64,000 nt of DNA, taken from contig JAXMOE010000001.1 of NCBI GenBank assembly GCA_034670025.1, positions 229,889 to 293,888 on the forward strand. The letters run 5' to 3'. Origin of the DNA: Chlorobiota bacterium. Its GTDB lineage: Bacteria > Bacteroidota > Ignavibacteria > Kapaibacteriales > UBA2268. Below are positions 7,810 to 49,811 of this stretch, piece after piece (positions within the stretch are counted from its first letter, which is position 1; each line of letters opens with the position of its first letter). The notes under the pieces were generated by a model that saw only the letters and a program-made list of their open reading frames with translations, searched no databases and was not told the origin of the DNA. A program made the position numbers and the translations under genes.

Positions 7810-7811
7810 TC

Positions 7812-12552: not shown

Positions 12553-12579
12553 TTAGTAACTATTTGTTTATATTTTTAC

Positions 12580-13369: not shown

Positions 13370-13413
13370 TAATTAGTACTTGTTGATTTATAATATAAAG
13401 AAAAGGTTTCAAA

Positions 13414-14097: not shown

Positions 14098-14100
14098 TAA

Positions 14101-17646: not shown

Positions 17647-18777
17647 TCAAAAGTTTTTCTTATTAAATTCTATTACTTCTTCAATTTCCTCTGCACTCAT
17701 TTTATTGATATAATGTTTTGATTGAGTTTGTATTGTATGACCAATTAATGAACGTACAACATTATCATTTAGAGTATAATCATTCATCATTTCATTTTCA
17801 ACTAACTTTCTTATTGCATGAAATTTTACTTCTTCTACGTTTTTTATTCCTAACATTTTCCTATAGTTATTAATATGCACTCCCATAATTCTTGACGTTT
17901 GGAGATTAAGCAAATTACTACTCTTAGAAAAACTCTTTTCATTAAACTCTAAGGCTTCTTTTAATAATGGTTCTAATTCAGGTCTAATGGAATAAGGGAA
18001 CTCTCTCCATGTATTATTTTTTCCGTCAATTAATAGTTTTTTAGGTTTGATGTGCCAAGGTTGCATCTTATATACTTCCCCAATCCGCATTCCTGTTATA
18101 CCAATAACTCTTAATACAAAATAAAGTTTAGTTGCTGACATTTTACTTTTGGGCTTACTACAATTGTCAATGTATTTACTTAACTCATGAACATATTTAT
18201 TTAGTTGATTCCTTGAACAAATTGTGAATTTGAATTTAGCTTTTTTAATTTTAATCCAAGGTTTAACAGGATTTGTTGTAATAATGTCAGATTCAATCCC
18301 AAATTTGAATATGGATCTCAATCGCTGAATAGAGGTGTTTATAGTTAAGTCCGAATAATTTTCTATCTCCTTCATTTCAAGAGCTCTTCTATTGACAAAT
18401 TTCGTGATTTCAACCATGTTGTCTAAATAAAAGTCATTATTATCGACAATCCTTTTGATAGAATTAAGAAAAGTTTCTTTAGTATTATCTTGTATGTGCT
18501 GAAACTTTAACTCTTTATATAGCAGAAACAGCTCAGAAAACTTATCAACTCTATTAGTATTAAATCCATTCTCACGATTGTAATATTCGCGAACTCTTTT
18601 ATCTAAGACTTGTATAGCAAAATCTTTGTTAGTTTTCTTCCAAGGTAAGTTCTTTATTGATTTCCTGTCACCAAATACATAGGTGTGGACATATCCATCC
18701 CTCTCAAAACAATAGACACCTTTTCTGTGATCAGGGTGATCCCATCGTCTTCCTTTCTTTTTTCTAGTCTTTCCCAT
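17647..18777 (-). CDS. tyrosine-type site-specific integrase
   Basis: 376 aa. C-terminal catalytic region (R...HAIRK...LIGHT...KHYI) typical of the phage integrase family, with an N-terminal SAM-like domain. Confidence 0.85.
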   Translation of the reverse strand: MGKTRKKKGRRWDHPDHRKGVYCFERDGYVHTYVFGDRKSIKNLPWKKTNKDFAIQVLDKRVREYYNRENGFNTNRVDKFSELFLLYKELKFQHIQDNTKETFLNSIKRIVDNNDFYLDNMVEITKFVNRRALEMKEIENYSDLTINTSIQRLRSIFKFGIESDIITTNPVKPWIKIKKAKFKFTICSRNQLNKYVHELSKYIDNCSKPKSKMSATKLYFVLRVIGITGMRIGEVYKMQPWHIKPKKLLIDGKNNTWREFPYSIRPELEPLLKEALEFNEKSFSKSSNLLNLQTSRIMGVHINNYRKMLGIKNVEEVKFHAIRKLVENEMMNDYTLNDNVVRSLIGHTIQTQSKHYINKMSAEEIEEVIEFNKKNF

Positions 18778-19174
18778 GGTTAGTTCTTTCTTTCAATTTT
18801 TCAGCAAATAATATTATAAATTCGTGTGACTCTTTCTCTTTTATTCGGGAGTTATCGGCTGTAAAAAAAGATAGTAATGTATTCAGTGTATCAGGGAACC
18901 AGTTGAAATCATTCAATAATTCTGGCATAGCAAAATGCCTCTCGATATATGAGAGAGTTGGGAATATAATAGAGCTATCTATCTTGCATTCCTCTAGAGT
19001 ATATAGTTCAAGTTGACAGAATTTATAGAATTTGTCAGCGTGTTCAAAAAGTGATGAGTACTCTATCAACACCTGATCAACATCCTTATCAGTGTTTGAC
19101 AGTACAATTCTTTCAGCAATTCTTAAACATCGAACTCTGAGTCTAATATTAATTTTGTTTTCTGACTGGAGCAA
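18764..19174 (-). CDS. hypothetical protein (between repressor and integrase, overlapping both)
   Basis: 136-aa ORF. The 14-nt and 26-nt overlaps suggest a co-transcribed leftward lysogeny operon. Confidence 0.45.
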   Translation of the reverse strand: MLQSENKINIRLRVRCLRIAERIVLSNTDKDVDQVLIEYSSLFEHADKFYKFCQLELYTLEECKIDSSIIFPTLSYIERHFAMPELLNDFNWFPDTLNTLLSFFTADNSRIKEKESHEFIILFAEKLKERTNHGKD

Positions 19175-19895
19175 AATCTTTAATCACTTTTTTAACAATA
19201 CCAAATATCTTAAAATCTTCTAAGTCACCAAGCTCTATATCTTCAGCATTCTTCGAATCTGACTTTAATAGGATGCTTCCATCCTTTTGATGACACAAGT
19301 GTTTCACAATTGGCATTCCATTTAAGGACCCCACAATTGTACAATCATAACTTGGTTTGCTGTTATAGACTTCAAATATAATTATATCACCCGAAGTCAG
19401 ACCAGCATCTTCCATTGAGTCACCATTTACATAGATTGCATCGTGTGAATCTTCATCTATATTCATACCTAAAGCTAACGGCATATATGTAGTTGGCAAA
19501 TCATTCAAATCAGTTAACGTCCCAGTCGCTGCACTTGCACTCATAATATGCAACTTAATATTTGCGAGCATCCCTTGAAATTGTTTTGGAACTCTATACA
19601 ACTCATCTTTCTTATCTGCAATGTAATCCTCATTTTTCTCTTTAGTCTTAATAGAACTTTTGCTAAGAGCCTCTTTATTAAATGGCTCACCTATTCCGTG
19701 TAAGTACCATTCAATATTAATGCCAGTTTCAGCCAATCTCCTTAATGCCGATTTGTTCTGATAAACTCTATCAGTATTAATGTATGTGTTTATAGTACCA
19801 GGTGAGACGCCTAGTATCTTTGCAAAAACAGTAGGGCTATGATAATGTTCATCAATGAAATCTCTTAGCCTTGATTGTGGTGTATCGCTCATCAT
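19149..19895 (-). CDS. CI/LexA-like phage repressor (N-terminal HTH plus C-terminal S24 peptidase domain)
   Basis: HTH (VFAKILGVSPGTINTYI). S24 signature (VNGDSMEDAGLTSGDIIIFE) with a downstream Lys. Divergent from the rightward early genes. Confidence 0.8.
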   Translation of the reverse strand: MMSDTPQSRLRDFIDEHYHSPTVFAKILGVSPGTINTYINTDRVYQNKSALRRLAETGINIEWYLHGIGEPFNKEALSKSSIKTKEKNEDYIADKKDELYRVPKQFQGMLANIKLHIMSASAATGTLTDLNDLPTTYMPLALGMNIDEDSHDAIYVNGDSMEDAGLTSGDIIIFEVYNSKPSYDCTIVGSLNGMPIVKHLCHQKDGSILLKSDSKNAEDIELGDLEDFKIFGIVKKVIKDFAPVRKQN

Positions 19896-26896: not shown

Positions 26897-26950
26897 TACC
26901 GAAAAATAGTCTGATTGCCCATTGAACTATAAGTTCAGTGAGCCCCTAAA

Positions 26951-30952: not shown

Positions 30953-31414
30953 ATGAGTGAAGAGAAAGTAAGAGAATACCCATACATCGGAGTACATCCC
31001 AAAGGTATGTGGGTACTATTCAGTAAAAAGAATACTGGTGTACTGTTAAATGATTGTACTGATGTAGACGAAGAGTTGAAGGCAACGACAGAGTCAAAGA
31101 AGTGGATAGAAGAAGAATTTACTTTAGCTGACTTACCTACAGTAGATGAGGAAGTGTTAGAACAACTAAATTCCGACAATGAGATAATTGTTAAAGACGA
31201 TGCAAGAGATTGGATATATGCACCATTCAAATTTGTAGCGGGCGGTTCAGCCAAAGGAGTTGAATTAACAACCTACGCACTGCAAACAGACAAAGGTACA
31301 ACGGTCTTAACTGTAGCCAAAAACACAGAATCAGGAAAGCTATCTACAAGCATTGTGTTTATTCCAGAAGCAAGGATTATAACACATGATGACGGTACTA
31401 AGTCAATCAAATAG
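30953..31414 (+). CDS. hypothetical protein
   Basis: 153-aa ORF. Confidence 0.45.
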   Translation: MSEEKVREYPYIGVHPKGMWVLFSKKNTGVLLNDCTDVDEELKATTESKKWIEEEFTLADLPTVDEEVLEQLNSDNEIIVKDDARDWIYAPFKFVAGGSAKGVELTTYALQTDKGTTVLTVAKNTESGKLSTSIVFIPEARIITHDDGTKSIK

Positions 31415-31420
31415 AATTTT

Positions 31421-31493
31421 AATCCACCCTTGTTCGCTCATGCGACCTTTCCCCCAGGAACTAAAAGCATATTCCTCTGACAAGGGTGGGATT
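31421..31493. repeat. inverted repeat AATCCACCCTTG / CAAGGGTGGGATT with a 48-nt loop
   Basis: 12/13-bp near-perfect stem immediately after the stop codon at 31414, at the left edge of the AT-rich island. Confidence 0.45.
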
Positions 31494-31737
31494 GATAAAA
31501 GAATTCAACTTTTCGTTATAATATAGAGCCTACAGTATCTGACATTTAAACCTCTAAACATCCAAAAAAACAAAAGCTTTAAGTGTTGCTCTAAAAGTTC
31601 AACGAGCCAATTAAATAAAGCAAATCTTGTAAATAGTTTTATTTTTACATAATTTAATCTGTTAAACGTAAACTAACAGTTTACAACCGTATAAAATTAT
31701 TGTTTAATTTGACTAATAATCATTACGTGGAGTTTAG

Positions 31738-32520
31738 ATGAGTTTAAAAAAGTTCATTAATTATGAATATACTTTAAGACCCAAAAATCTTGCAAATGTT
31801 ATTGATTCGCATATGGATCATATTTATGAAGGCTTTCTACAAAGATCTATATTGTCTTTAAATGGAATGGGAACCGATAAATTTAAGATTACTGTCAAGA
31901 TAATGGATGATAATATTTACGCAATTAGAATAAGACGTAAATATCAAAAAGGAAGCATAGAAAGTTCTATAATTATATTCAATTTAAACCCTGGCTCAAA
32001 CACTATTTCTATTAGTAAGAGCGAAGATTTTTTAACTAATGGTATCTTATTAAGAGTAGTCATAGTCTTGTTGAGTAAAAAACTAAATAAGAATGGATTA
32101 AAAATAGAGACAAGAGAAATAAAAATTACTAAAGACTTTTGGGAAATAGTAAAAGGCAAAGAGGACAGGATAAAAGAATTAAAGTTTGAATATAAAAGTG
32201 CAAATCTAAAAGGATCCTCAAAAGCAATTCCAACAAAATTAAGAATGTTATTCGAAATGCTTGGAGATAATTCAAATAGCATATCAATGAACGCTCCAAG
32301 GGGCTTCACTTTAAAAAGTGTTAATAAATTCAATAAAATATTAAATCCACTTGTTACTTTTTCTAAAACTTCAAACTCAAATATTCTTATTAAATTTATT
32401 GATGAAAAAAAGTTCTATAACACTTCAAAGAATTATTCAGTTACTATTTATGATAATTTCAATTTTGATAAAATTGGTGATGATACAGAATCAAATTTTA
32501 ATTTAGAAATTCTATCTTAA
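31738..32520 (+). CDS. hypothetical protein, AT-rich orphan (260 aa)
   Basis: N/K/I-rich composition unlike the flanking phage genes. Isolated between a 320-bp AT-rich leader and a terminator. Confidence 0.5.
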   Translation: MSLKKFINYEYTLRPKNLANVIDSHMDHIYEGFLQRSILSLNGMGTDKFKITVKIMDDNIYAIRIRRKYQKGSIESSIIIFNLNPGSNTISISKSEDFLTNGILLRVVIVLLSKKLNKNGLKIETREIKITKDFWEIVKGKEDRIKELKFEYKSANLKGSSKAIPTKLRMLFEMLGDNSNSISMNAPRGFTLKSVNKFNKILNPLVTFSKTSNSNILIKFIDEKKFYNTSKNYSVTIYDNFNFDKIGDDTESNFNLEILS

Positions 32521-32596
32521 AATTCTATTTAGATAAATATTATTTTTAATTTTGTATTCGAATCTGGCTCAACAGGCAGATTTAGAATGTAGTAAT

Positions 32597-32628
32597 TAGG
32601 AACACATGTAAATGTGTTCCTAATTTTT
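32597..32628. terminator. bidirectional intrinsic terminator
   Basis: AGGAACACAT-gtaa-ATGTGTTCCT perfect 10-bp stem with a T-run after. Confidence 0.7.
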
Positions 32629-32644
32629 CAACTACAATACTACA

Positions 32645-33391
32645 CTAGTCACAACATGATTCAATAGAATATAACTCGAGAACTTCATCTTGAGAAAGAA
32701 CTTTGTTAAAAAATGCAATGTCATCAATAGATCCATTAAAATACTTTCCAATTATTATATCACCACCATTAACTGGATTAATAACTTCTTGAGTTATACT
32801 AGTCTGTGTATCCATTAGTTTACCATTTTGATAGAGTGACATTGTTTTAATATCGAAGTCACATGTTGCAACTACGTGATACCATTGATTTAGCGAATTT
32901 TGATCAGAGTTGTCCCAAACAGAATGCATGTTATTAAAAAAGGTTACTTTATTTATATCATATACACCTAATGACATTACTCTATTTGTAGCAGGAGTTT
33001 TATTGTCTTTGTCACCTCTAGCAACTAGGACTTCATATTGTCCTTGATTATTGATAGTATGTTTATACCAAAGAGAAATAGAGTACTTTCTCAACCCATT
33101 TAAAAAATTAGGAGACGTCATGTACAGATAGTTTGGAGAAGTATCGCTAAATTTATAAGCACAATTTTCTCCACCCTCTCTACCTTCAGTTGGTTCCGCA
33201 TTGTTCTCATTAGTTAAATCATTACTAGACTTAAAATCCTCTATACTGGAATTACTAAAAGGGTAGTAGGCAATCAAATTATCTTCTAAAGAAGCTGGAA
33301 TACAAACTTTATTAGTTGGGTCAGTTCCATTATCTTCTTTCTTGCATGAGAAAGCTAGAAGTAGTATTATAGTTAGAAAAAAATATTTCAT
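32645..33391 (-). CDS. lipoprotein with LamG-like (concanavalin A-like lectin) domain
   Basis: Lipobox LLAFSC after the signal peptide. LWYKH...WYHVVATCD...LYQNGKL...FNGSIDDIAFFNKVLSQDEV is a LamG jelly-roll signature. Confidence 0.65.
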   Translation of the reverse strand: MKYFFLTIILLLAFSCKKEDNGTDPTNKVCIPASLEDNLIAYYPFSNSSIEDFKSSNDLTNENNAEPTEGREGGENCAYKFSDTSPNYLYMTSPNFLNGLRKYSISLWYKHTINNQGQYEVLVARGDKDNKTPATNRVMSLGVYDINKVTFFNNMHSVWDNSDQNSLNQWYHVVATCDFDIKTMSLYQNGKLMDTQTSITQEVINPVNGGDIIIGKYFNGSIDDIAFFNKVLSQDEVLELYSIESCCD

Positions 33392-33590
33392 TTGAATCCT
33401 TCATGTATGTTAAAAAATGTATTAGAATAAACACAAAACTAGTAGTTTAGTTACATTTTATATCGAGTTTATAAATCTGATAACTTCTCTTTATGTTTAC
33501 TAAATACGTCCGACTGCATCGCTCCCTTATTAAAAGCTCATAAATTCTTAAAATATTGATATACTTTACTTTAAAATCTGATAGAAGTTA

Positions 33591-35579
33591 TTAAGACTTT
33601 ACTACTTCTTTCAGCACTTCACTTAAGTCCATTAAAGTAAAAGGTTTGGGGATAAAGTGTGTTAGTCCAATCTTATTCAAATCTGATATGTCTTTACTCT
33701 CGGTAAAACCAGAAGTAACAATTATATTTATTTCACTATTTAGCTCTTTCAGCTTTTTATAGCATTCTTTACCGTTCATTTGTGGCATAATCATATCTAG
33801 AATAACTAGGTCAATTTCATCAGATTTACTTTTAAATAACTCAATTCCTTTTATCCCATCTTCAGCAAGTAATACTTTAAACCCTAGCTTTTCTAAAAGT
33901 ATTTTTGTCGTTACTCTGATTATTTCTTCATCATCTATTACTAGAATGGTTTGATTTCCAGCTATTAATTCATTATTGTTATTTACTTCACTATCTAATT
34001 TAGCATTCTCAGATAAAGGTAATAGTACATTGAATGTAGTACCTATGTTTAATTCACTATATACAACTATCTCACCACAATGCTCCTTAACAGCCCCTTG
34101 CACTGATGACAACCCTAAACCTGTACCTTTACCTCTTTGCTTAGTTGTAAAAAAGGGATCGAATACTTTTTTAGCTACTTCTTTTGTCATGCCGTGGCCT
34201 GTGTCATTGATAGAGATAAGAACATAATGACCTGGCTCAACGTTTAAATATGAATGTTCTAAATCTTGCTTAGAATAAAATTTAGACTTTGTTGCAATGC
34301 TCAATGTGCCTCCATTTGGCATCGCGTCAAAAGCATTAATAAAAAGGTTAATAAAAATGTTCTGTATTTGAGATTTATCCCCTTTTATAATGAAATCATT
34401 ATCTGAAACTTTAAAATCAAAAATTATATTTTTATTAATTCGACTAGAAACTAATTCAAGAGAAACGTTGATTTCATCAATCAAATTTAATTCTATAGAT
34501 TGGAACTTACCTTTTCTTGAGTAATCAAGTAATTTTTTAATTAATTCTGCGGCTCTATTACTCGCATTTTCTATGATACCTAAAGCTTTCAATGAATGTT
34601 TATTAAGACCTTCATCGTACTTCATTAATTCAACAGAATTAAGAATACCAGTTAGAACATTATTAAAATCGTGAGCAACTCCTCCTGCTAACAATCCAAC
34701 CGCTTCCATTTTCACTTTTTGAGCTAACTGTGCCTCAATTTCTTTCCTCTTTGTTATATTGTTTATCTTAATAATAACATCATGTTTAACATCCGCCTCC
34801 ATTGGAAAAACTTTTACTTCATAAAAATTTAGTTTATTATTCTTTGTAGCCTGTTCTTCGAATGAAAAAGTAGTATTGTTTTTTATACATTCTTGGATTC
34901 TAATTTTATGATCTTTTAATAAATCAAAATAATTGAATAAATATTTTCCTAAAACTTCTTTATCGTCATTTTTTGTTAATAATCTTCTACCAAACTTGTT
35001 TATTAATGTAATTTCAAATTGGTCATTAATCCCAATTAATGTCGATGGCATTGAATTAATTACACCTTCTAAATACATAGTTAATCTTTCCACTTCGTTT
35101 TGATTCTTAAGTTCTTCTGTTACATCTCTTAAAACTGCAAAGCTCATTCTTTCATTTAACAGTATTGCGGATAGTTTCATATTTAATATTTTACCAGATT
35201 TATGAATAAATTCATAGTCAACTTCATCTAGGTACTTTTGTTCATAAAAAAGTGGTAATATTTCACTAATAGCTTTTTCTTTACTTTTTGTTGTTAAAAA
35301 ATCAGTAGATTTCTTACCAATAACCTCATGTTGTTCGTATCCTAGACCCTTTAACCAATAGTCACTAACATCAATTATATGACCCGACTCATTTATTGAA
35401 TGAAAAATTGCAGGGATTTTCTTCAACACATCAAATTGTTTAGAATTTTCTACACTAGAACATTCATCAAGCTCATTTGATAAAATTTCAAAAACAGTTT
35501 TTGAAATAGCTTCGTCGTCAAAAAGAATTTTAATCTTTTCCTTAAAAGTATTTATTGTTCCGTTGTCCATAATTCTCAA
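33591..35579 (-). CDS. hybrid sensor histidine kinase/response regulator with PAS domains
   Basis: H-box AHDFNNVL, ATPase N/G boxes (DTGHGM, GTGLGL), C-terminal receiver (LVIDDEEIIR...DLVILDMIMP). Confidence 0.85.
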   Translation of the reverse strand: MRIMDNGTINTFKEKIKILFDDEAISKTVFEILSNELDECSSVENSKQFDVLKKIPAIFHSINESGHIIDVSDYWLKGLGYEQHEVIGKKSTDFLTTKSKEKAISEILPLFYEQKYLDEVDYEFIHKSGKILNMKLSAILLNERMSFAVLRDVTEELKNQNEVERLTMYLEGVINSMPSTLIGINDQFEITLINKFGRRLLTKNDDKEVLGKYLFNYFDLLKDHKIRIQECIKNNTTFSFEEQATKNNKLNFYEVKVFPMEADVKHDVIIKINNITKRKEIEAQLAQKVKMEAVGLLAGGVAHDFNNVLTGILNSVELMKYDEGLNKHSLKALGIIENASNRAAELIKKLLDYSRKGKFQSIELNLIDEINVSLELVSSRINKNIIFDFKVSDNDFIIKGDKSQIQNIFINLFINAFDAMPNGGTLSIATKSKFYSKQDLEHSYLNVEPGHYVLISINDTGHGMTKEVAKKVFDPFFTTKQRGKGTGLGLSSVQGAVKEHCGEIVVYSELNIGTTFNVLLPLSENAKLDSEVNNNNELIAGNQTILVIDDEEIIRVTTKILLEKLGFKVLLAEDGIKGIELFKSKSDEIDLVILDMIMPQMNGKECYKKLKELNSEINIIVTSGFTESKDISDLNKIGLTHFIPKPFTLMDLSEVLKEVVKS

Positions 35580-35681
35580 TTTGTTTTAATAATACTCATT
35601 ATCCATAAAAAAATAATTATTCTGTTTCATTACTGCTGGTTTGTAATAGATACTTGTGAAAAGAGCTCTCTACCACTTACC

Positions 35682-35906
35682 CTATCTCTCATAGTCGTGA
35701 CAAACTTTTCCAGAGCAAAGCCAATCTGTCGAGAATCCTTGTTTAAATAGTCTTAAACTAATTTTTTGTAGATCATTGTCGTTGTTTAGATATTTATTTA
35801 GTGACTGATGCGAAATACCAATCTTCATAGCAAATTCAGATTTAGTTAGCCTTGTAATACTAAATAATTTAGTAAATCTAGAAAGTATATCTCTGTCGTT
35901 CTTCAA
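35682..35906 (-). CDS. XRE-family HTH DNA-binding protein
   Basis: LTKSEFAMKIGISHQSLNKYL is a helix-turn-helix. Confidence 0.5.
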   Translation of the reverse strand: MKNDRDILSRFTKLFSITRLTKSEFAMKIGISHQSLNKYLNNDNDLQKISLRLFKQGFSTDWLCSGKVCHDYER

Positions 35907-36106
35907 AATTTAAATAAAAATAATTAACGTAAAAGTTCAGTGAGCTAAGATAATGATATTTTTTGGATATATTTATTGGCGTAAAAGTTCAATGAGGATA
36001 CTTTTTTTTATTTCTATTTTTAAACCATTAAAAATTCTATAAAATTTGGTAACAAAATGACAATTATCTAAAATTATTTTAAAAATGTGCTTATTTAGAG
36101 GTTTAG

Positions 36107-36304
36107 ATGAAAAGAGAAGAAATTTGCAAAATATTAAATAGAATTGATGAAACTAGTAGTATTGACTTAAATGATGATCTTGAATATAAATTTTACAAAG
36201 TCTATAACGGTTTGCTTTTTATAGAAACATTTCCATTAACAAAAAACCATAGTAGTATATTAAGACTCACTAACAGAGGTAAAGAATTAATTAGGCATAA
36301 CTAA
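36107..36304 (+). CDS. hypothetical small protein
   Basis: 65-aa ORF in an AT-rich region. Confidence 0.25.
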   Translation: MKREEICKILNRIDETSSIDLNDDLEYKFYKVYNGLLFIETFPLTKNHSSILRLTNRGKELIRHN

Positions 36305-36510
36305 GCATATTGAACAGGAGTAGTTATGTCAACAATAAGCATTACTAATTATATTTTTGATTTTTTTAAAGCCCAACGATATTATGTGATAATAAATAGG
36401 CTGTTCTTTAAAATAGAAATTTAACTCTGTTCCGATAAGTATATCAGATATAGGAGTTATAATTGATATATATTCAAATAACACGAGCAAGCCTACTAAT
36501 ATGCATCATA

Positions 36511-36556
36511 GCAGTGCCCATCTCTCTCATTTATCAGGATTACACCGCTAACATAC
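36511..36556. repeat. direct repeat copy 2 (partner of 26011-26056)
   Basis: See copy 1. Confidence 0.55.
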
Positions 36557-36661
36557 TTTCAACTTGCTCTGTTCTAAAACAACTCTTGTAGCACAGCAAA
36601 GTTAAATAAAACGAGATTATAATTCAAGATATTTGTCAATATCTATTCAGTTAGCTATATT

Positions 36662-37198
36662 GTGTTTCTACTTAACTACTATGGGAAATCAAACTTGAAA
36701 ACTTTACTATTAATTTTATCTACTGTAATACTTCTTTCATGCTCCAATGATGACAAATCGACTACTGAACCTACTGTCCAAGGTAATCTTTACTGTTCAG
36801 ATGTTGACATTATGCCTGACGGCTTAGAAGACACTTACGTAAGAATAGTTGGTGTGCTGCCGAACCCAGATGGTGATGATGACTATAATGAACAGTTTAG
36901 AGTGAAGTCATTCTTACTAGATAGTAATGTTGATATTGGGAGTTACTATATTCTTGATGATGAGGATGTAAGATGGGATCTCGATGAGTTGGAGTCCTCT
37001 ATTGATTACATTGAGACTGATAATTGTAGAACGATAACTTACACCTCTGACAAAGTAGCTCAACTACTTAATTCTGGTGATGTGATTTATCTTTATAATA
37101 AGGATGAAGTTCTCATTCAGACTGTTTCTTTTGGGGCTGTTGGGTCTGGGGAGTGGGTGGATTTCTTTTATAATTATTCAGTGATTCCGGGTGCATAA
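36662..37198 (+). CDS. lipoprotein, possibly lamin-tail-domain (LTD)-like
   Basis: Lipobox ILLSCSNDD. YVRIVGVLPNP...GSYYILDDED pattern resembles LTD (EFVEL-N-P...DLSGW-L). Confidence 0.4.
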   Translation: MFLLNYYGKSNLKTLLLILSTVILLSCSNDDKSTTEPTVQGNLYCSDVDIMPDGLEDTYVRIVGVLPNPDGDDDYNEQFRVKSFLLDSNVDIGSYYILDDEDVRWDLDELESSIDYIETDNCRTITYTSDKVAQLLNSGDVIYLYNKDEVLIQTVSFGAVGSGEWVDFFYNYSVIPGA

Positions 37199-37213
37199 AT
37201 TAAGAGGTTTAAA

Positions 37214-37438
37214 ATGAGAAATATAAGTAAAGAAAATCTAGTTAAATATTTGAAAGAGATTGACGAGAAAGGTCAATTTGCAGCTGACACTATAGAGAAA
37301 AGAGTGTTTTTAAATACAGGGTTCAAGTATTTTAACAGTAAAGACTTTGAAAAATCAACAGCTTTTCATGGTGCTGAATACCAAGGGGGATTGTCTTTAA
37401 CGGAATATGGTAAAAGTATATTAGAAGAAAGTGATTAA
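37214..37438 (+). CDS. hypothetical protein (first gene of a three-gene AT-rich operon)
   Basis: 74-aa ORF, 15 bp after the lipoprotein gene. Confidence 0.4.
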   Translation: MRNISKENLVKYLKEIDEKGQFAADTIEKRVFLNTGFKYFNSKDFEKSTAFHGAEYQGGLSLTEYGKSILEESD

Positions 37439-37453
37439 ACCTAGTTAGATTTT

Positions 37454-37936
37454 ATGATGTTAACTGATAAAAATGTTGAAACCCTATTAAATTCTCCTAA
37501 AAAATTAAACTTATTTTTTGAGGATTTATTTCAAAAACCCAAGCAAAAATTCGGTCACACTGAATTTGAATTTGATTTTTTTGATGAAAGTGATATTAAG
37601 TTTGGTTTAAAGCTAAGAATTAATAATTCAAATAAATCAAATTTTTCAGCTATTTTAGGCTTTTATTCAGATGGTAATAATTATAATATTCTTACTAGAT
37701 ATAATGGTAATTCTCATTGGCATAAAAACTTACTACACAATTCACCTGATTTCAAAGATTTTCACATTCATATCGTCAAAGAAGAATATGTACAAAGCCC
37801 CAAAATACGTAGAAATGAAAGTTATGCAGAACCTACCGATAGATATGACAATTTTAGATCTGCTACTATTTGTTTAATTAAGGATTGTAATATAACTTTG
37901 AAAGGTGAAATCGAACCAGAACTATTTAATGAGTAA
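37454..37936 (+). CDS. hypothetical protein (160 aa), His-rich motifs HWHKN / HIHIV
   Basis: ORF overlapped at its 3' end by the next gene. Confidence 0.45.
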   Translation: MMLTDKNVETLLNSPKKLNLFFEDLFQKPKQKFGHTEFEFDFFDESDIKFGLKLRINNSNKSNFSAILGFYSDGNNYNILTRYNGNSHWHKNLLHNSPDFKDFHIHIVKEEYVQSPKIRRNESYAEPTDRYDNFRSATICLIKDCNITLKGEIEPELFNE

Positions 37937-38729
37937 AAGTCTTAACATATTAAAATCTATAAGAGAAAATATTTCATCTGAAATTGAGATTATAAGTGAT
38001 GGCGTAGATAGCTATGAAGTCATTACTCCGTTCTATTTTGATGATGGGGATATGTATACTATTAGACTTGAAAAGTCAACCTTTAATAACTGGTATTTCA
38101 CTGACGAAGGAAATACATTTATGCGATTAAGCTACGAAATGGATGTAAATAATCTGACTAAAGAAGGTAGAAGATTTGAAATTGTTAATTCAGTTGTTAA
38201 TTCACTAGATATTCAAAACTCTGATGGAGAATTAATATCAAATGTACAAAATGAGGAATATGGTAAATCATTATATAATTTGATTCAATGTATAACTAGA
38301 ATTAATGACATATCTTTTTTAAGTAGAGAGAATGTTAAATCTACTTTTATTGAAGATTTTAAATCTTTTATTAATAGTGAACTTAAGGATAAACACTTTG
38401 AATTTGATCATCATATACCTAAATATGATATTGGAAAGAAGTACCCTGTTGACTGCATGATAAACAGTGTCCCCAATAAGAAACCTCTTTTTCTTTTTGC
38501 AATAAATAGTGATAGTAAATGTAAAGATGTTACTATAAATATTCTTCAATATCAAAAGTGGGACATTGCTTTTAAACCAATTGCAATATTCGAAGACCAA
38601 ACTAATATCAGTAGAAACGTGCTTGCTAGATTCTCTGATGTTGGCGAAAAACAATATTCGAGCCTGTATTCAAACAAGGAAGGTTTAGCGAAACAATTTA
38701 AAGAATTTTATAACATTCAAAATTTTTAA
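37905..38729 (+). CDS. hypothetical protein (274 aa)
   Basis: ORF with a 32-nt overlap onto the preceding gene, consistent with an operon. Confidence 0.45.
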   Translation: MKSNQNYLMSKSLNILKSIRENISSEIEIISDGVDSYEVITPFYFDDGDMYTIRLEKSTFNNWYFTDEGNTFMRLSYEMDVNNLTKEGRRFEIVNSVVNSLDIQNSDGELISNVQNEEYGKSLYNLIQCITRINDISFLSRENVKSTFIEDFKSFINSELKDKHFEFDHHIPKYDIGKKYPVDCMINSVPNKKPLFLFAINSDSKCKDVTINILQYQKWDIAFKPIAIFEDQTNISRNVLARFSDVGEKQYSSLYSNKEGLAKQFKEFYNIQNF

Positions 38730-38920
38730 TTTTATGGTTCTTTAAACCATATAAAACCATCACATTAATTGCCATCTTTTTTGAACGATTATTACATTTT
38801 AAATCTCACAATAATTTGTAAATAATTTTCCAAGAACCACTCCATTTATTGCAACCCTTACCTACTAACCTCCAAAATCGGTAAATCTTACAAACTTATT
38901 CTCATTCTTTAATTTTACCC

Positions 38921-38962
38921 TATAAAAAAAAAGCCCAACTATAAAAGTCAGGCTTTAGAATT
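38921..38962 (-). terminator. probable intrinsic terminator for the minus-strand repeat-protein gene
   Basis: AAAGCC...GGCTTT stem followed (on the minus strand) by a T9 run. Confidence 0.4.
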
Positions 38963-38978
38963 AAAATCTAATTAAAAT

Positions 38979-40874
38979 TTACATTACAACTAAAGTTACC
39001 AATCCTGTTCCATCTAAAGTATTAGTCCCTGTACTTGTTGGATTATTTTGTATCTGTATTTTAAGTGTACCAGCAGTATTTGTAACAATAGTACCTATAA
39101 ATCTATAAGGCGTAGATAAAACAGAAGAATTTAAATCTTCAAAATTAGTTGCATCATAGCCAAAATCTCCATCAAAAAAACCAGAAGTAAAAGTACCAGT
39201 GTAGTTAATCCTAGTGTCAATTTTCCCAGATCCAGTTTCATTAACTTGGAAATAGCCAAAAAGTTGATATACGGTATTTGCAGCTAAAGTGAATTCAATT
39301 CCTGTATCTTGATATGTACTACTTAACGTTAAACTGTTAGGTGTATCAGTAGATGCTGTAGCTCCACCACCACCACCTGCAACTGTAGCCCAGCTTAAAT
39401 TAGTTCCATCAGTTGTTAAATATCTACCAGAATTACCTGATTGTGACGGTAAATTACCTTGCTTTCCATCTAACTGAGTTTGTACATTTGAAGTTACAGA
39501 ATTAATAAATTGAAGCTCAGTGCTTGTTACCGAACCGTCTGCTAATTTTGTTGCATCTATTGCAGCACCTGCTTTTATGTCTGAATTTTCAATATTTGTG
39601 ATAGTGTTATTATCTGCATCTATTGATTTATTTGTTAAAGTCTGTGTATCTGTACTACCAACTACGTCTCCCGTTGGTACTGCTTTAACTGCAGTTACTG
39701 CACTAGTTCCATTTCCCTGTAGAAAATTACCAGTTGCTAAAGTTGTTGCTCCTGTACCACCATTTGTAACTGACAAAGTTCCACTTACTGAGTTAGCATC
39801 TCCTAATGGCAATGAACCATAAACAGCAGCTGTTCCTGCTGTGCCACTTGAAAGTAATACTTGATTAGCAGTTGCTGAAGAGTTTACTTCTAAGTTAGTA
39901 GCATTTGATAAGATAGTGCTAGACCCACCTGCGTTTAATGTATTTGTAGCAAAAGATAAACCATTACCAGCTGTTATAGTTGCTTGTTTGCCGTCTAGTT
40001 GTGTTTGTACGTTTGAGGTTGTTGAATTAATATACTGAAGTTCAGTACTTGTTACAGATCCATCAGCTAACTTAGTCGCATCAATTCCAGCATTGGATTT
40101 AATATCTGCATTCTCAATATTAGTTATTGAGTTATTATCTGCATCTATTGATTTATTTGTTAAAGTCTGTGTTGCTGTTGTACCCACTAAATCCCCTGTA
40201 GGTAAACCAGTTGTGGCAGATAATAGACCTGAAGAATTTGCAGATACAATTCTATTGCCTGTGCCTGTTAGAGAACTTACAGTAACATTTGTGGGTGTCA
40301 ACGATAATGCATCTGTACTATTTACACTAATTACACCTGTATTTGCACTATAACTTAGCTCCATTTCTGTATTATTCAATTCTCCATTGTCTGGACCTAT
40401 GTGTAGGGTGCTACCGCCTACATAAACATCATCCCATCTGTTATCATCTGCTCCAATAGTACCGTTAAGTGTTTGTGGGTTAAAATTACCACTATTGTCT
40501 AACACCGTCGCTTCAGCCTGTATTAATATTAACTGGTCATATCTTTTTTGAGAAAATAATGTACCATTTACATAAATATCTAATAATGTAAATGTATTGA
40601 TTACAGAAGCATTAATTCCTGACCAGTCGCCTGTAGACCCACCCGCTGGGTAATCGTTTACGTTAACTATTACTATTCCATTATCGTTTGGTGCTAGACT
40701 GAAAGTCTCCCCTCTAAATAACAATGTATTACTGGTATAGTCTTTTAGTTCAATATAAACGTTCTGTGCAGCTGTGTTATTAGTGTAATAAGCTACTTTA
40801 GATGGCTCTAATCCATAAGATGTCAAAGAGCAAATAAGTAAGATTAGAACAGTTATAAGTTTGAATTGATTCAT
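38979..40874 (-). CDS. secreted tail-fibre-like repeat protein with signal peptide and two tandem ~140-aa repeats
   Basis: Signal peptide MNQFKLITVLILLICSLTSYG. Repeated block ...TQTLTNKSIDADNN(S/T)ITNIEN(A/S)DIK...IDATKLADGSVTSTELQ(Y/F)IN...NVQTQLDGKQ. G/T/S/N-rich. Confidence 0.6.
   Translation of the reverse strand: MNQFKLITVLILLICSLTSYGLEPSKVAYYTNNTAAQNVYIELKDYTSNTLLFRGETFSLAPNDNGIVIVNVNDYPAGGSTGDWSGINASVINTFTLLDIYVNGTLFSQKRYDQLILIQAEATVLDNSGNFNPQTLNGTIGADDNRWDDVYVGGSTLHIGPDNGELNNTEMELSYSANTGVISVNSTDALSLTPTNVTVSSLTGTGNRIVSANSSGLLSATTGLPTGDLVGTTATQTLTNKSIDADNNSITNIENADIKSNAGIDATKLADGSVTSTELQYINSTTSNVQTQLDGKQATITAGNGLSFATNTLNAGGSSTILSNATNLEVNSSATANQVLLSSGTAGTAAVYGSLPLGDANSVSGTLSVTNGGTGATTLATGNFLQGNGTSAVTAVKAVPTGDVVGSTDTQTLTNKSIDADNNTITNIENSDIKAGAAIDATKLADGSVTSTELQFINSVTSNVQTQLDGKQGNLPSQSGNSGRYLTTDGTNLSWATVAGGGGGATASTDTPNSLTLSSTYQDTGIEFTLAANTVYQLFGYFQVNETGSGKIDTRINYTGTFTSGFFDGDFGYDATNFEDLNSSVLSTPYRFIGTIVTNTAGTLKIQIQNNPTSTGTNTLDGTGLVTLVVM
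39470..40250. repeat. intragenic tandem DNA repeat (two ~260-bp copies about 520 bp apart)
   Basis: 40-bp identical core TATTATCTGCATCTATTGATTTATTTGTTAAAGTCTGTGT at 39613-39652 and 40131-40170, with about 75% identity in the flanks. Confidence 0.7.
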
Positions 40875-41040
40875 TCAATTTACCTCTATTAATTAAATTA
40901 TGATTTGTTTATTGATGCAATTTATAATTATTATTTTAAGCAAACAATAATAATGAAGTCCTGTTAATAATACCTATTACTGGCTATATTAAAATCAACT
41001 ATTATTTTTTCATTGTCATTTCTGGTCTGTTTTTATGATT

Positions 41041-41051
41041 CCCCCCCCCCC
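41041..41051. repeat. C11 homopolymeric tract (G11 on the minus strand)
   Basis: Eleven consecutive C in an otherwise AT-rich genome, about 170 bp upstream of the minus-strand repeat-protein gene start (40874). Confidence 0.9.
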
Positions 41052-41067
41052 GTGCAAAATTATTACA

Positions 41068-41847
41068 TTAGTTTCCTAATACATTCTTTGCTTTTATCGA
41101 TTCAATTTTATTCATAATTAAGTCAAAATCAGCTTCATTCTTAATCTGACTCCATTCAGAGATAAGTAAATCATATTCATTTGAAGTAGTATAGGGTTTA
41201 ATATAAGCCATATTCTTATTGAACTCCCTAATGTCAAATGAAATCGCAGCGTCTATATAAAAATTGACTAACATAAATAATATTAACACTAAGCTTGGTA
41301 AAGAGAATTTAATGATTGATCTTGCTGATTGAATTTTAAAATTAGTTAACAGATTTTCTATAACTTTTTTATCAGACTCAATTTCATTTTGAATCTTTTC
41401 TATTTCTTTGCTAATATTTTCAGGGTCTACTTTAGAGGGTTTTTCCTTGCTGGAATCGTCTATGCTTGCCAATAGCACTTCTGTTCTCGATTCTAGTTTT
41501 ATATTTTCATGCAACAAATTTTTGATAAGCTCAACTTTTCTATCTTTAGTGTTTTCTAAGTTATCTATGAAGAGTGCTAAAATCATAGATAGTGCAACTA
41601 TCATTAGTATACTAGTGGTTCGACTGAACATATAAAGATCTTGACTAGAGACTCGTTTATAGTAATGTTGAATAAAACTATCACTAATATCCATTAATAT
41701 ATTAACGACGTAAGGACCAATAATTGATAGTACCCACAATATTCCTGCTGTAAGTAAGGTAATAAACAAGCTGTATGCTATTTTTTTCATAGTAAATAAT
41801 TCTTTCCAAGATGTGTCCTTGTTTGTCATCCTATATCTCCTTGTCAT
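41068..41847 (-). CDS. hypothetical integral membrane protein with central coiled-coil
   Basis: Hydrophobic segments at both ends and a charged coiled-coil middle. Confidence 0.5.
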   Translation of the reverse strand: MTRRYRMTNKDTSWKELFTMKKIAYSLFITLLTAGILWVLSIIGPYVVNILMDISDSFIQHYYKRVSSQDLYMFSRTTSILMIVALSMILALFIDNLENTKDRKVELIKNLLHENIKLESRTEVLLASIDDSSKEKPSKVDPENISKEIEKIQNEIESDKKVIENLLTNFKIQSARSIIKFSLPSLVLILFMLVNFYIDAAISFDIREFNKNMAYIKPYTTSNEYDLLISEWSQIKNEADFDLIMNKIESIKAKNVLGN

Positions 41848-41933
41848 GTTTAATTAATGATATCCAATTTATAAATTATATTTATAAACATAGAATATTC
41901 CAATGTCAAAATAAACTATTTTTTAACAAGTTT

Positions 41934-47376: not shown

Positions 47377-47806
47377 GCTTTACAACTTCCTCTTCTTCCA
47401 TTTGAAGTCTTCTCATTATTTCTTGTACCGGAACACCGCCTTTTATCATATCCCCAACAATCTTTGACATCTTAAAAACACCGTGAGTTCCTTTGGCTCT
47501 GTTGTGCCTAATGGTACTCATCTGCTGTGAAGTTAAATCTGTAGGGTTCGTAGTTGTAACAGGAATCTTACCACCATCCCTTTCTTTTATTCTCTTATCG
47601 TCCGATGCAAGCCAACGGTGATAACCATCAACAATCGTATTATCATTATTTTTTACTATTGGTTGAGTCCATCCGTCTTCCAGAATTGAAATTACTAATA
47701 GTTCAAAATCATATTTGGTCATAGAGTTTGGGTTGTAATTGTTTGGGTTTAATGTGTCTCGATCTACCCATTCAATATTATCTATTGGTTGTTTGAAATT
47801 ACTCAT
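47291..47806 (-). CDS. ParB-like nuclease domain protein (IbrB-like)
   Basis: DGYHRW motif of the ParB/Srx fold. 4-nt ATGA overlap with the upstream PAPS-reductase-like gene. Confidence 0.65.
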   Translation of the reverse strand: MSNFKQPIDNIEWVDRDTLNPNNYNPNSMTKYDFELLVISILEDGWTQPIVKNNDNTIVDGYHRWLASDDKRIKERDGGKIPVTTTNPTDLTSQQMSTIRHNRAKGTHGVFKMSKIVGDMIKGGVPVQEIMRRLQMEEEEVVKLGISEGIPKEKIIKDHSFSKAWGPDDKR

Positions 47807-48939
47807 TCTGTTACCTCAGGTTTCTTACCTTTCTTAAATTTCATTGTAGCTGACTTACGTTTTTTAAAGTCCCCTCTAATAGCACAGTCACATAAGAACT
47901 TCCAACTACAACCAGTCTCGTGATGCGGTTTGCTATCTGGGATTTTGTCATTAGTGTCCTTGTAGTGTAGTCTGATAGAGTCATTTATACCTTTCTGAAC
48001 TATTGACTTGTAAGGCTCTTCATATCCAGTCATTATTACCTCATAGTAATCTTCCCATTTGTCGTAAGCAGGAGGTAATACTTTTCCTGTATATAATCCA
48101 ACATTCGAGTACCTAAGGGCAGTTCTCGCTCCTCTTACTCTATCTTGCATCTTCCCCCAAAGTGCGTGGTCTATTAATTGGTATTCTCCAATCCCCCGAA
48201 GTGGCTCTTCACCAAAAGCATTACTTACTCTTTGTTTCAAGAACCTATTATGATAACCTGGTATCTTATCCAAAGCATCGTAATATCTATTATAATCCCA
48301 ATTGAATTTTTGAATCCCAGACCAAACATCTTCACTAGTCCAATCATAGACAGGGTGAGCTATATGAATATTCCCATATCGATGTGCAATGTAATTATCT
48401 GACTTCTTTCTAAGGACAGCCATTCTTCTTCTTAAACTTTCCTGAGCTCTAATTCCAGTTAGAAAGCAAACATTACCATTGAAGTCCTGATACATCTCAT
48501 CACAGAATTGTGGCATTGTTAGACCAGGTTTAAATCTTCTATGAGTTGTGATTGCATTTTCTGGCATATCTCTACACCATAACGGTTTCTTAGATGGTTC
48601 CCAAGGATACCACCACGGCTCATTATTACTACAAGCGTTTCTATGCTTAACAGGAATGCAATACCATTTGAAATCAATATCAGGATTGTTGGATATTCTT
48701 TCTACATACTCAATAGTCTGACTTGTAATTGCTTCTTCATCAATATATACAACCTCTAAGGGCAACTGCTTAAGCTCTTTTGCAACGACAAGAGCAAGGT
48801 TTAACACAACCGTAGAATCTTTTCCACCAGAAAAAGATACTACTACCTTGTCAAATCTATTGAAGCAATCTCTTATTCTTAGCCTTGATTCATCTAATAC
48901 ATTGGTTGTATAGACGATTTGCTTATGTGATAAACCCAT
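47803..48939 (-). CDS. PAPS reductase-like PP-loop ATPase (IbrA/DUF3440-like)
   Basis: PP-loop VVSFSGGKDSTV. C-terminal Cys cluster (CSWKFLCDC). Confidence 0.65.
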   Translation of the reverse strand: MGLSHKQIVYTTNVLDESRLRIRDCFNRFDKVVVSFSGGKDSTVVLNLALVVAKELKQLPLEVVYIDEEAITSQTIEYVERISNNPDIDFKWYCIPVKHRNACSNNEPWWYPWEPSKKPLWCRDMPENAITTHRRFKPGLTMPQFCDEMYQDFNGNVCFLTGIRAQESLRRRMAVLRKKSDNYIAHRYGNIHIAHPVYDWTSEDVWSGIQKFNWDYNRYYDALDKIPGYHNRFLKQRVSNAFGEEPLRGIGEYQLIDHALWGKMQDRVRGARTALRYSNVGLYTGKVLPPAYDKWEDYYEVIMTGYEEPYKSIVQKGINDSIRLHYKDTNDKIPDSKPHHETGCSWKFLCDCAIRGDFKKRKSATMKFKKGKKPEVTE

Positions 48940-49811
48940 TATCCTACCTCATCTAAAAATTGTTTAGCAGTTGTTATAAGTGTAGATGCAAATTCAACAG
49001 TCTTTGGCTCAAATTCATATATCTCAGCCCAAGTATGTTTAAATGTGTTGTCTTTAATATCTTGCGAATGTCTTTTACGTCTAGCCCAAGGGTGAGTGCC
49101 TAAATAGAATGGTCTTTTCAAGTTATAAAAAGGGGGCAACTCCAAATTGTAATAATGTATCAAAGCCAAAACTTCTTCATGCGACCAATCAGAAATAGGA
49201 GAGTATCTTGTTATTCCTTTAGCGTTAGTGTAAATATTACTACCACCTGTACCAACATAATTATTGTCCGCCGTCCTTCTTCCCAAAAGGATAATATCTA
49301 ATTCATATTCTTTAAAGTAAATATCCTGTGCTCTTTGTTGCACTTGTCTATACCATATAGAACCGTACTTAGAGTTATCAGGGAAAAGCATTTCAGGATG
49401 ATTAGATAACCATTCTAAGTCTTGTCCAGTGTTGATTATCGAAATATCCATTGGGGAATTAGAATTCAGCCAATCCAAAAAGAATGAATACTCAAGATTA
49501 GTCAAGCCAATCATAGATTTTTTAATACCAACAATATCAGTTATGTACTTCAATGTAATTGAGTCTTTCCCACCGCTCCAAGCAATGGCTACGTTCTTAT
49601 CATGAACAATTCTTATCATTTCATTTGCAGTTTCTTCAATTCTCCTATCAATATGGTCTTTGCTAACAAACTCTTGAGGGTTGTTGAACACCGCTAAGAA
49701 TTTATCTCTTTCGTCTTGTGACTTCAATTGGGCTTTCCTTGGTAATACTTTTCTATTCATATCACACCGTCCTAATGTCTTTAAGGTTCTTAGCAGATAC
49801 ACCATTGACAA
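48939..49811 (-). CDS. PAPS reductase-like PP-loop ATPase (second copy)
   Basis: PP-loop IAWSGGKDSIT. Confidence 0.6.
   Translation of the reverse strand: MSMVYLLRTLKTLGRCDMNRKVLPRKAQLKSQDERDKFLAVFNNPQEFVSKDHIDRRIEETANEMIRIVHDKNVAIAWSGGKDSITLKYITDIVGIKKSMIGLTNLEYSFFLDWLNSNSPMDISIINTGQDLEWLSNHPEMLFPDNSKYGSIWYRQVQQRAQDIYFKEYELDIILLGRRTADNNYVGTGGSNIYTNAKGITRYSPISDWSHEEVLALIHYYNLELPPFYNLKRPFYLGTHPWARRKRHSQDIKDNTFKHTWAEIYEFEPKTVEFASTLITTAKQFLDEVG

Follow-up and report, generated by a model that had tools for sequence, protein, structure and literature searches.

A probable prophage cargo region in a Chlorobiota bacterium, with a candidate two-gene defence pair

The closest described systems

Cargo regions of prophages are the source of many bacterial immune systems and of many virulence or surface-modifying genes; familiar examples of such accessory, or "moron", genes include rexAB, sieB, bor and lom of phage lambda and the contents of the defence hotspots of P2/P4-like phages. 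The subject of this report is an AT-rich island at 31415–41933 (~10.5 kb, 11 genes) in a 64,000-nucleotide (nt) stretch of contig JAXMOE010000001.1 from a Chlorobiota bacterium; the stretch, analysed at its full length, is referred to below as the window. The island is probably the cargo region of an integrated temperate phage and a mosaic in which three or more kinds of passenger are combined, including a proposed defence pair, genes A and B. The first kind would be a surface or secreted set, consisting of orf260, a LamG lipoprotein, lipoprotein-178 and a repeat protein of 631 amino acids (aa); the second would be a cytoplasmic PAS-PAS hybrid histidine kinase with a small XRE regulator; and the third would be the translationally coupled pair of A (DUF6978-like) and B (DUF1828). 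None of these passenger genes is needed to build or replicate the virus.

The island resembles described moron regions in that genes without a role in virion construction lie between functional modules, in that its composition deviates from that of its surroundings, and in that it is replaced in a related phage. It also has predicted promoter-like and terminator signals of its own, all such signals in this report being consensus matches only, and its cargo is of the defence and surface type. In contrast to those regions, it is large, it is located at the junction of two convergent operons rather than beside the repressor or the attachment site, and its genes include one for a complete hybrid histidine kinase, an uncommon feature. 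The island is ordinary in kind, a typical prophage cargo region, and it confirms the prophage-cargo pattern in a poorly studied, low-GC bacterium.

For the A-B pair, the closest described system is PDC-M24, a two-gene cassette with 153 RefSeq instances and one of 145 predicted "phage defence candidates", which were proposed by a "guilt-by-embedding" rationale, the genes lying inside BREX, DISARM or type I restriction-modification loci; the PADLOC supplement also contains the cassette FAM_01408>>FAM_00065 (bioRxiv 10.1101/2024.01.29.577857). As in PDC-M24, a small gene lies upstream of a gene for a DUF1828 protein of ~258 aa on the same strand, and the family is found among restriction-modification genes. 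Unlike PDC-M24, the pair in the window is prophage-borne and is predicted to be co-transcribed with a lipoprotein gene and orf74, its B protein has glutamine in place of a family glutamate (Q209), and its A protein matches PDC-M24A at only E = 0.008. The nuclease-like half of B has structural neighbours in type II restriction enzymes of the PspGI/AgeI/NgoMIV/Cfr10I group and in the nuclease domains of Can2 and NucC; it differs from these in being fused to a chaperone-like domain instead of a DNA-recognition or CARF domain and in having no cognate methyltransferase in the island. A further comparison is offered by HipAD/DS-6, a validated two-gene defence system found with DefensePredictor, in which a DUF3037+DUF1829 protein partners a HipA kinase (PMC13092281). 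The DUF1828 domain of B belongs to the same DUF1828/DUF1829 neighbourhood of Pfam, a likeness that stops short of demonstrated homology, whereas B matches DUF1828 alone, with no DUF1829 or DUF3037 match at E<=0.01, and its partner A is not a kinase.

Extent and phage setting of the AT-rich region

The sequence-only reading had described a very AT-rich island at 31450–38950, lower in guanine-plus-cytosine (GC) content than the host operon and the phage genes on either side, and sliding-window analysis bears out this contrast. The GC content of that interval is 0.285, compared with 0.345 in the host part (1–17511), 0.338 in the left part of the prophage and 0.358 in the right part, and it lies ~5 standard deviations below the 7.5-kb windows placed outside the island (n = 415, mean 0.349, standard deviation 0.0128, minimum 0.324); the 7.5-kb window with the lowest GC content of the whole 64 kb starts at 31501. 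In 1-kb bins, GC ranges from 0.267 to 0.295 over 32–39 kb and from 0.31 to 0.40 elsewhere. Bins of 400 nt resolve a sharp step at ~31500, where GC falls from 0.39 to 0.265, followed by values of 0.22–0.33 through to 39100 with a single bin of 0.355 over lipoprotein-178, values of 0.35–0.375 across the body of the repeat-protein gene, a second dip to 0.27–0.28 over 40700–41900, and a lasting recovery at 41900. GC at third codon positions (GC3) agrees: the median is 0.214 for the 11 open reading frames (ORFs) at 31415–41933 and 0.286 for the 61 other ORFs (one-sided Mann-Whitney p = 1.4e-4), and GC3 is lower in 10 of the 11 island genes. The intergenic spacers of the island have GC contents of 0.195–0.307; since the ORFs show the drop in GC3 as well, AT-rich spacers alone do not account for it. 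Composition is therefore uniform in neither GC nor GC3, and the island, at 0.285–0.296, stands apart from the remainder of the window at 0.35.

The left edge of the earlier interval lies close to the step at ~31500. The right edge at 38950 is an artefact of total GC, which recovers at ~39.1 kb, and the compositional and comparative boundary is at ~41933. The gene that causes the recovery encodes the 631-aa repeat protein, whose GC3 of 0.169 is the second lowest among the island ORFs (gene A is lowest, at 0.168); its second-position GC (0.47) and total GC are raised by the abundance of Gly, Ala, Thr and Ser in the protein. The following gene (41068–41847) has a GC content of 0.29. By codon composition and by comparison with the related phage described below, which lacks it, the repeat-protein gene belongs to the island.

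The position of the island between the early and the structural phage modules, as proposed from the sequence, was also recovered. Host genes, including those for PNPase, a SAM hydroxide adenosyltransferase, a penicillin amidase and an epimerase, occupy 1–17511, and the prophage opens with genes for a tyrosine integrase (17647–18777, minus strand) and an S24 repressor (19149–19895, minus strand). Early genes follow on the plus strand at 20.6–31.4 kb, ending at 31414, and encode a Sak4-like annealing protein, an SbcC-like protein and a helicase. On the far side of the island, a minus-strand block runs from 51169 to 41934 and contains genes for ParB-like proteins, two PAPS-reductase-like proteins, TerS, TerL, a Mu-type portal, a Mu-F minor head protein and Neck1, the last conserved gene of the packaging and head operon, which ends at 41934. 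The protease, major head protein and tail genes are on the plus strand from 51345, with tail or fibre candidates at 56.9–63.9 kb. The plus-strand early operon and the minus-strand packaging operon thus converge, and the island fills their junction.

A related phage lineage (L043) was reached through the 90%-identity cluster of TerL and is represented by many contigs, several of which are ~60.5 kb long and apparently complete; the window proteins themselves are also present in two Logan assemblies. The related phage and the window are colinear from the head genes through Neck1 (54–91% aa identity, ~75–77% DNA identity). Synteny stops at Neck1, after which the related phage has one 221-aa gene and then the convergent end of an early operon unrelated to that of the window, so that the ~10.5 kb of the window at 31415–41933 correspond to ~0.7 kb there. 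The last non-syntenic gene before Neck1 in the window encodes a membrane and coiled-coil protein of 259 aa and 29% GC (41068..41847, minus strand), which has no similarity to the 221-aa protein and no match in Pfam, PHROG or PADLOC. Further relatives were sought in several ways: megablast of 20000–44900 against 50,697 phage records gave no match, and scans of IMG/VR with the last early gene and with a 363-aa early gene gave nothing. A scan of genome contigs with the minor head protein found only distant relatives, in Proteobacteria and others (37–47% identity over part of the protein), which were useless for synteny, and scans with Neck1 and with a DNA pattern from a non-coding element of the island each recovered just the one related phage.

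These comparisons favour the view of an accessory island: it carries no core PHROG function, an unrelated 221-aa gene takes its place in the sole related lineage, with which only the right flank is shared, and its genes have close homologues in unrelated contexts. Profile searches of each ORF found no match above a weak level to ordinary phage structural or replication families. The description of the contents as orphan genes applies only in part. Four ORFs (orf260, orf65, lipoprotein-178 and orf74) have no match in Pfam, PHROG, PADLOC or NCBIfam, and two of these, orf260 and lipoprotein-178, have homologues elsewhere.

The inverted repeat that had been noted at the start of the island is present. 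Its arms, AATCCACCCTTGT (31421–31433) and ACAAGGGTGGGATT (31480–31493), with a bulged extension to ~31414–31506, form an imperfect hairpin of ~93 nt (31414..31506, plus strand) at the left edge of the AT-rich region, directly 3′ of the stop codon of the last early gene; the predicted RNA fold has an energy of −26.8 kcal/mol (z = −2.5 relative to shuffled sequences), and no run of T lies 3′ of it. There is no second copy of the repeat anywhere in the window, which rules out the hairpin as one of a pair of terminal repeats of the island, and the preferred reading is a structure formed at the 3′ end of the early operon. Neither this hairpin nor any other part of 30.5–42.5 kb, including the non-coding element mentioned above, has a match in Rfam.

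The DUF6978-like/DUF1828 pair

Gene A (37454..37936, plus strand) encodes a 160-aa DUF6978-like protein with an invariant His/Asn cluster, and gene B (37929..38729, plus strand) encodes a 266-aa protein combining a DUF1828 domain with a restriction-endonuclease-like domain. The ATG of B overlaps the stop codon of A (ATGAGTAA), the two genes sharing 8 nt, and this overlap together with the 15-nt spacers between lipoprotein-178, orf74 and A indicates that these four genes form one operon. Among the defence-catalogue profiles of PADLOC, only the A-B pair gave a match in the island and its flanks, to the candidate PDC-M24, with B matching PDC-M24B at 6.8e-21 (PDLC04539) and 7.6e-12 (PDLC04540; profile positions 25–224 of 256). 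In addition, B matches Pfam DUF1828 (PF08861) with 76.7 bits against a cut-off of 22 (residues 41–133 of the 274-aa ORF) as well as phrog_5059, A matches phrog_27326 (1.4e-19), and DUF6978 is matched by 41 of the 74 members of the subfamily of A. A is best treated as a divergent relative of DUF6978, homology within the wider family being supported by its own Pfam match (3.2e-5), by those 41 subfamily members and by an hhalign comparison with phage phita81A described below, and the pair is classed as a divergent member of the predicted PDC-M24 system. The suggestion that such an island would hold anti-phage defence or lysogenic-conversion cargo is supported by this predicted pair and by the kinase and surface proteins, which are plausible conversion cargo.

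The pair recurs widely. The B family yielded 141 word-indexed matches at ~40–50% identity in several phyla and at least 530 metagenome loci; a word-indexed search with A recovered A alone, whereas an exhaustive HMMER search for its family gave 463 cluster representatives at E<=1e-3, nearly all of them stand-alone proteins of ~160 aa. In each of the first eight loci examined, the gene directly preceding B on its strand is A; four of these loci are IMG/VR viral contigs, and one (L036) retains only a C-terminal remnant of A. The same arrangement was found in 68 of 80 metagenome loci, or 68 of the 75 informative ones that remain when five loci with <100 nt of upstream sequence are set aside. Seven loci (L072, L077, L081, L085, L088, L101 and L128) have B without A despite sufficient upstream sequence, and in these B may be paired with a different partner.

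A census of the nearest neighbours of the pair, covering 102 ORFs from 51 metagenome loci and counted by Pfam family, is dominated by restriction-modification genes: N6_Mtase (11 ORFs), Eco57I and MmeI_Mtase (9 each), HsdM_N (6), Methylase_S (5), N6_N4_Mtase (4), ResIII (3) and HSDR_N (2). The remaining common families are Peptidase_M78 (4), TaqI_C and DUF1016 (3 each), and AAA_21, RVT_1 and PLDc_2 (2 each). Phage immunity genes form a second setting. In the Pseudomonas temperate phage phita81A, cro is followed on the opposite strand by cI, an 84-aa gene, an A-like gene and a B-like gene, the A-like protein aligning with that of the window at an hhalign probability of 99.9%, and the pair of a Vicinamibacteria prophage comes after the S24 repressor gene. 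A position after cI is also that of rexAB in phage lambda. The A-B pair is thus a conserved, translationally coupled operon found amid restriction-modification and phage immunity genes. In the Vicinamibacteria prophage (L038/L039, 6774–8617), genes for a 186-aa protein and a 428-aa RNase_T-family exonuclease come next after the pair, on its strand, an arrangement that may represent an extended variant of the system.

In the structural model of B, the N-terminal DUF1828 domain has a secretion-chaperone-like fold (CesT/Spa15/DUF2170-like) and the C-terminal half has the restriction-endonuclease-like alpha/beta core of the PD-(D/E)xK fold; the nearest structures to the C-terminal half, those of the enzymes named above, have 7–13% sequence identity to it. 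A has a confidently predicted fold with no solved relative and a single weak, uncharacterised match in a viral structure library, and profile searches of A and B against PDB sequences returned nothing significant. In A, H90, N92, H104 and H106 are invariant, and H88 and E95 are present in at least 90% of members. In B, the N-terminal domain has the conserved motifs FDDGD and SDEGHT, and the C-terminal domain has D175 (invariant), D195-x-K/R197, E209, E222-x-Q224 and R234; D195 and K/R197 are each kept in 51 of 54 sequences and E209 in 53 of 54. Position 209 lies on the helix that follows the D-x-K motif, and the equivalent Glu is catalytic in enzymes of the Cfr10I/NgoMIV type.

Judged from these folds and the genomic context, the effector would be B, acting as a PD-(D/E)xK nuclease, and its chaperone-like N-terminal domain would restrain the nuclease or sense a phage protein; A would be indispensable to B, as a regulator or as a second subunit with a catalytic or metal-binding role. 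The N-terminal domain, A or both would keep B inactive until a phage cue arrived, and the pair, expressed from the prophage, would protect the lysogen against other phages. Several observations count against a defence system of this kind. The B protein of the window is the sole exception at position 209 among the 54 sequences, with Gln (codon 38553–38555), and if Glu209 is catalytic, this copy may be impaired, weakened or altered in activity. The match of A to PDC-M24A is confined to the N-terminal half (E = 0.0079, 14.1 bits), with none at 1e-3, just 6 of the 74 members of its subfamily match that profile, and its full-length match to Pfam DUF6978 (PF22398; positions 1–133 of 133, E 3.2e-5) scores 24.7 bits against a gathering score of 29.6. 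Moreover, the searchable literature yielded no experiments on PDC-M24, DUF6978 or DUF1828 and, for the A-B families, no phage-challenge studies. A function of the pair in defence is given as plausible but unproven, with the case for and against it about evenly balanced.

The best-placed alternative is that A-B is a toxin-antitoxin or addiction module, or a restriction-modification accessory or regulator, which in this prophage merely stabilises the element. A small overlapping operon of a nuclease-like protein and a small partner is compatible with such a role, as are the frequent embedding of the pair among methyltransferase and specificity genes and the presence of toxin-antitoxin genes (PIN/MazE and Unstab_antitox) near the pair in one locus (L037). 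However, the invariant His/Asn residues and the rigid, confidently modelled fold of A are more suggestive of an enzyme or a metal site than of a labile antitoxin, and the recurrence of the pair directly after cI in phage immunity operons places it where exclusion systems are typical. This explanation is unlikely, and it partly overlaps the defence reading, many validated defence systems being toxin-antitoxin-like.

A broader proposal is advanced more tentatively than the defence function itself: DUF6978-DUF1828 could be a widespread two-gene immune system, present in several phyla and in temperate phages, in some of them within the cI operon, that excludes competitors, and in this prophage it would occupy a reusable slot beside a possibly phase-variable surface set and a hybrid kinase. 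Should the pair prove to act in defence, the immune repertoire would gain an effector-sensor architecture and a small-protein fold that are both new. The copy in the window is a compact test case for PDC-M24, with defined gene boundaries, confident models and mutable conserved residues, namely D175, D195, K197 and E/Q209 of B and H90, N92, H104 and H106 of A. The dissection of B into domains and the statistics of A-B linkage and neighbourhood are new relative to the searchable papers.

Surface proteins, kinase and putative regulatory elements

Four genes make up the proposed surface or secreted set. orf260 (31738..32520, plus strand) encodes a 260-aa protein without a signal peptide, has a GC content of 25%, and gave no tblastn match against the 50,697 phage records; alone among the island ORFs it lacks both a signal peptide and a family match; its one homologue, with 68% identity, is in a metagenome-assembled genome of Chlorobiota. 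The LamG/concanavalin-like lipoprotein (248 aa; 32645..33391, minus strand) has a signal peptide and the lipobox ...LLAFSC and matches Pfam Laminin_G_3 at 1.9e-18. Lipoprotein-178 (36662..37198, plus strand), with the lipobox ...ILLSC, is the first gene of the four-gene operon that includes A and B. The repeat protein (38979..40874, minus strand) has a signal peptide and two repeats of ~70 aa (...TLTNKSIDADNN.ITNIE...); an intrinsic-terminator-like hairpin directly 3′ of its gene (11 pairs followed by TTTTTTT; 38930..38956, minus strand) would close this convergent minus-strand unit.

Homologues of these proteins occur together in two other settings. On a 678-kb metagenome contig (L040), homologues of the LamG lipoprotein (87.5% identity) and the repeat protein (75%) lie 3.6 kb apart (7103–10747), in the same order and orientation as in the window, within a different integrative element with an Arm-DNA-binding integrase, DUF3987 and HTH_17. 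In the Chlorobiota metagenome-assembled genome (L058/L059), the homologues of orf260 and lipoprotein-178 (62% identity) adjoin a homologue of the repeat protein (44% identity in the N-terminal part and 37% in the C-terminal part), all within 5 kb (L058, 3264–8015). This co-occurrence indicates that orf260, the LamG lipoprotein, lipoprotein-178 and the repeat protein are a recurring set and not random orphan ORFs, and their varying combinations and arrangements suggest a functionally linked set that moves horizontally. Relative to L040, the 5.6 kb between the LamG and repeat-protein genes of the window, which hold the kinase, the helix-turn-helix (HTH) protein, orf65, lipoprotein-178, orf74, A and B, look like additional, nested cargo. 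The surface set would most likely change the cell surface or envelope of the lysogen, and together with the kinase it offers candidates for phage-driven changes in host cell surface and signalling. On the L040 contig, the surface set is also near a histidine kinase, a different one of the TPR type.

The same homologues bear on the possibility that low GC simply follows from an amino-acid and codon usage inherent to these genes, the region being an old, stable part of the phage lineage. Composition is kept elsewhere (GC 0.23 for the orf260 homologue and 0.35–0.37 for the repeat-protein homologues), and the integrase gene of the same prophage is also low, at 0.296. Two points detract directly from the cargo-region reading. 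The AT-rich homologues of the cargo genes reside in genomes that are themselves 30–33% GC, so low GC may be partly intrinsic to the cargo. Furthermore, a single relative lineage was available for comparison and its left flank differs, so that the right-hand end of synteny marks a breakpoint of mosaicism and not a clean insertion into a backbone conserved on both sides. Against an intrinsic origin, GC3, on which protein sequence places little constraint, is lower in 10 of the 11 genes; composition changes sharply at 31500 and 41900, in step with the end of synteny; the island genes are found in other mobile and chromosomal contexts; and each block of the island has promoter-like or terminator signals of its own. 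A stable, intrinsically AT-rich region is distinctly unlikely, and the cargo-region reading is retained.

It is more doubtful still, to the point of being very improbable, that the repeat protein, the LamG protein and their neighbours are virion parts, such as a tail fibre or receptor-binding protein, at the end of the head and neck operon. The repeat-protein gene is indeed downstream of Neck1 on the same strand, and there are weak PHROG matches of the repeat protein to "virion structural protein" (2.7e-4) and of the LamG protein to "minor tail protein" (6.2e-4). However, both proteins are marked for secretion, the repeat protein by a signal peptide and the LamG protein by a lipobox; homologues are found within an integrase/DUF3987 element and in a stretch of chromosome that has no virion genes; the related phage shares the head, neck and tail genes and lacks both proteins; and the tail and fibre candidates of this prophage are located elsewhere. 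Least credible is a separate transposon or integrative element inserted into the prophage, for which the sharp edges, the left-edge hairpin and the presence of the LamG and repeat-protein genes in an integrative element elsewhere could be cited, but the island ORFs include no integrase, transposase or recombinase by Pfam, PHROG or NCBIfam, flanking direct or terminal inverted repeats do not exceed chance-level short matches, and the window contains no tRNA gene.

The second kind of passenger in the cargo region is a soluble hybrid sensor histidine kinase of 659 aa (33591..35570, minus strand) with the domain order PAS-PAS-HisKA-HATPase_c-REC, supported by Pfam matches to HisKA (3.1e-9), HATPase_c (1e-19), Response_reg (8.3e-22) and PAS_9 (7.3e-17). 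Its start is the ATG at 35570, as in the 659-aa call in L034, and not a TTG. The nearest NCBIfam models are CckA-type kinases, below their cut-offs, and identity to any protein in the 50,697 cultured-phage records does not exceed 29%. A PADLOC match to PD-T4-6 (1.4e-4) was dismissed, being restricted to the receiver-domain region. Like other phage-encoded sensor kinases, the HisKA-HATPase-REC core matches phrog_5982 (1.7e-87), a group without an assigned function, and this match indicates that histidine kinases do occur in phage genomes; in contrast to phrog_5982 and related groups, no phage-encoded partner regulator stands beside the kinase. Since the island has no cognate output regulator, the kinase would have to feed a phosphorelay of the host. 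Upstream of it on the same strand, a small XRE-type HTH protein of 74 aa (35682..35906, minus strand) matches Pfam HTH_3 at 2.5e-4, below the gathering score, and the transcriptional repressor group phrog_2328 at 9.7e-6.

Two further small ORFs complete the island. orf65 (36107..36304, plus strand) was called as a gene in L034, and orf74 (37214..37438, plus strand) lies 15 nt upstream of gene A and is not kept with the A-B pair in other loci; the two have no similarity to each other.

Several putative regulatory elements accompany these genes. The divergent spacer at 35907–36106, next to the XRE gene, has a GC content of 19.5% and contains two plus-strand copies of TAAAAGTTCAnnGAG situated 52 nt apart (35930–35944 and 35982–35996, together spanning 35930..35996). 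Two more copies were found, one upstream of orf260 at the island edge (31592–31606) and one, with one mismatch, in the early region (26928–26942). All four copies of (TTG-N4-)TAAAAGTTCAnnGAG are on the plus strand upstream of plus-strand genes, and none of 100 shuffled sequences reached four matches. The motif may be bound by a phage regulator or serve as a promoter element of an unusual type.

The operon of lipoprotein-178, orf74, A and B is preceded by a conserved non-coding element of ~190 nt (36472..36661), which is 68–72% identical to an intergenic gap in the related phage (L043, 16736–16942, reverse strand), located in an early region that is otherwise unrelated. The element contains a promoter-like box, TTGTCA-17-TATATT (36633–36661), of which TTGnnA-17-TATATT is common to the related phage, and a long-range stem (36479–36490 / 36563–36573) with 2 compensatory changes; in the fold of the minus strand, 6 of 30 pairs are compensated. 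Lipoprotein-178 has no similarity to the gene that follows the same element in the related phage. The occurrence of one element before unrelated genes suggests a reusable expression slot for swapped cargo, and the element may be a small RNA or a regulatory element heading that slot.

Upstream of the repeat-protein gene, 167 nt from its start codon, a C11 homopolymer (41041..41051; G11 on the coding strand) is the sole run of G or C of 8 nt or more in 64 kb of 35% GC DNA. It is absent upstream of the repeat-protein homologues in L040 and L058, and it may be either a slipped-strand phase-variation switch or an assembly oddity.

In the flanking phage genes, weak matches of two early genes to Cas3d and PDC-S26 (14–18 bits) were set aside as meaningless. 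Two adjacent PAPS-reductase-like genes and two ParB-like genes are located just upstream of the terminase genes (47803–49811, minus strand), and this block is kept in the related phage at 54–91% identity, where one of the PAPS-reductase-like proteins has DUF3440. The presence of such a block before a packaging module is unusual, and it is possibly involved in DNA modification.

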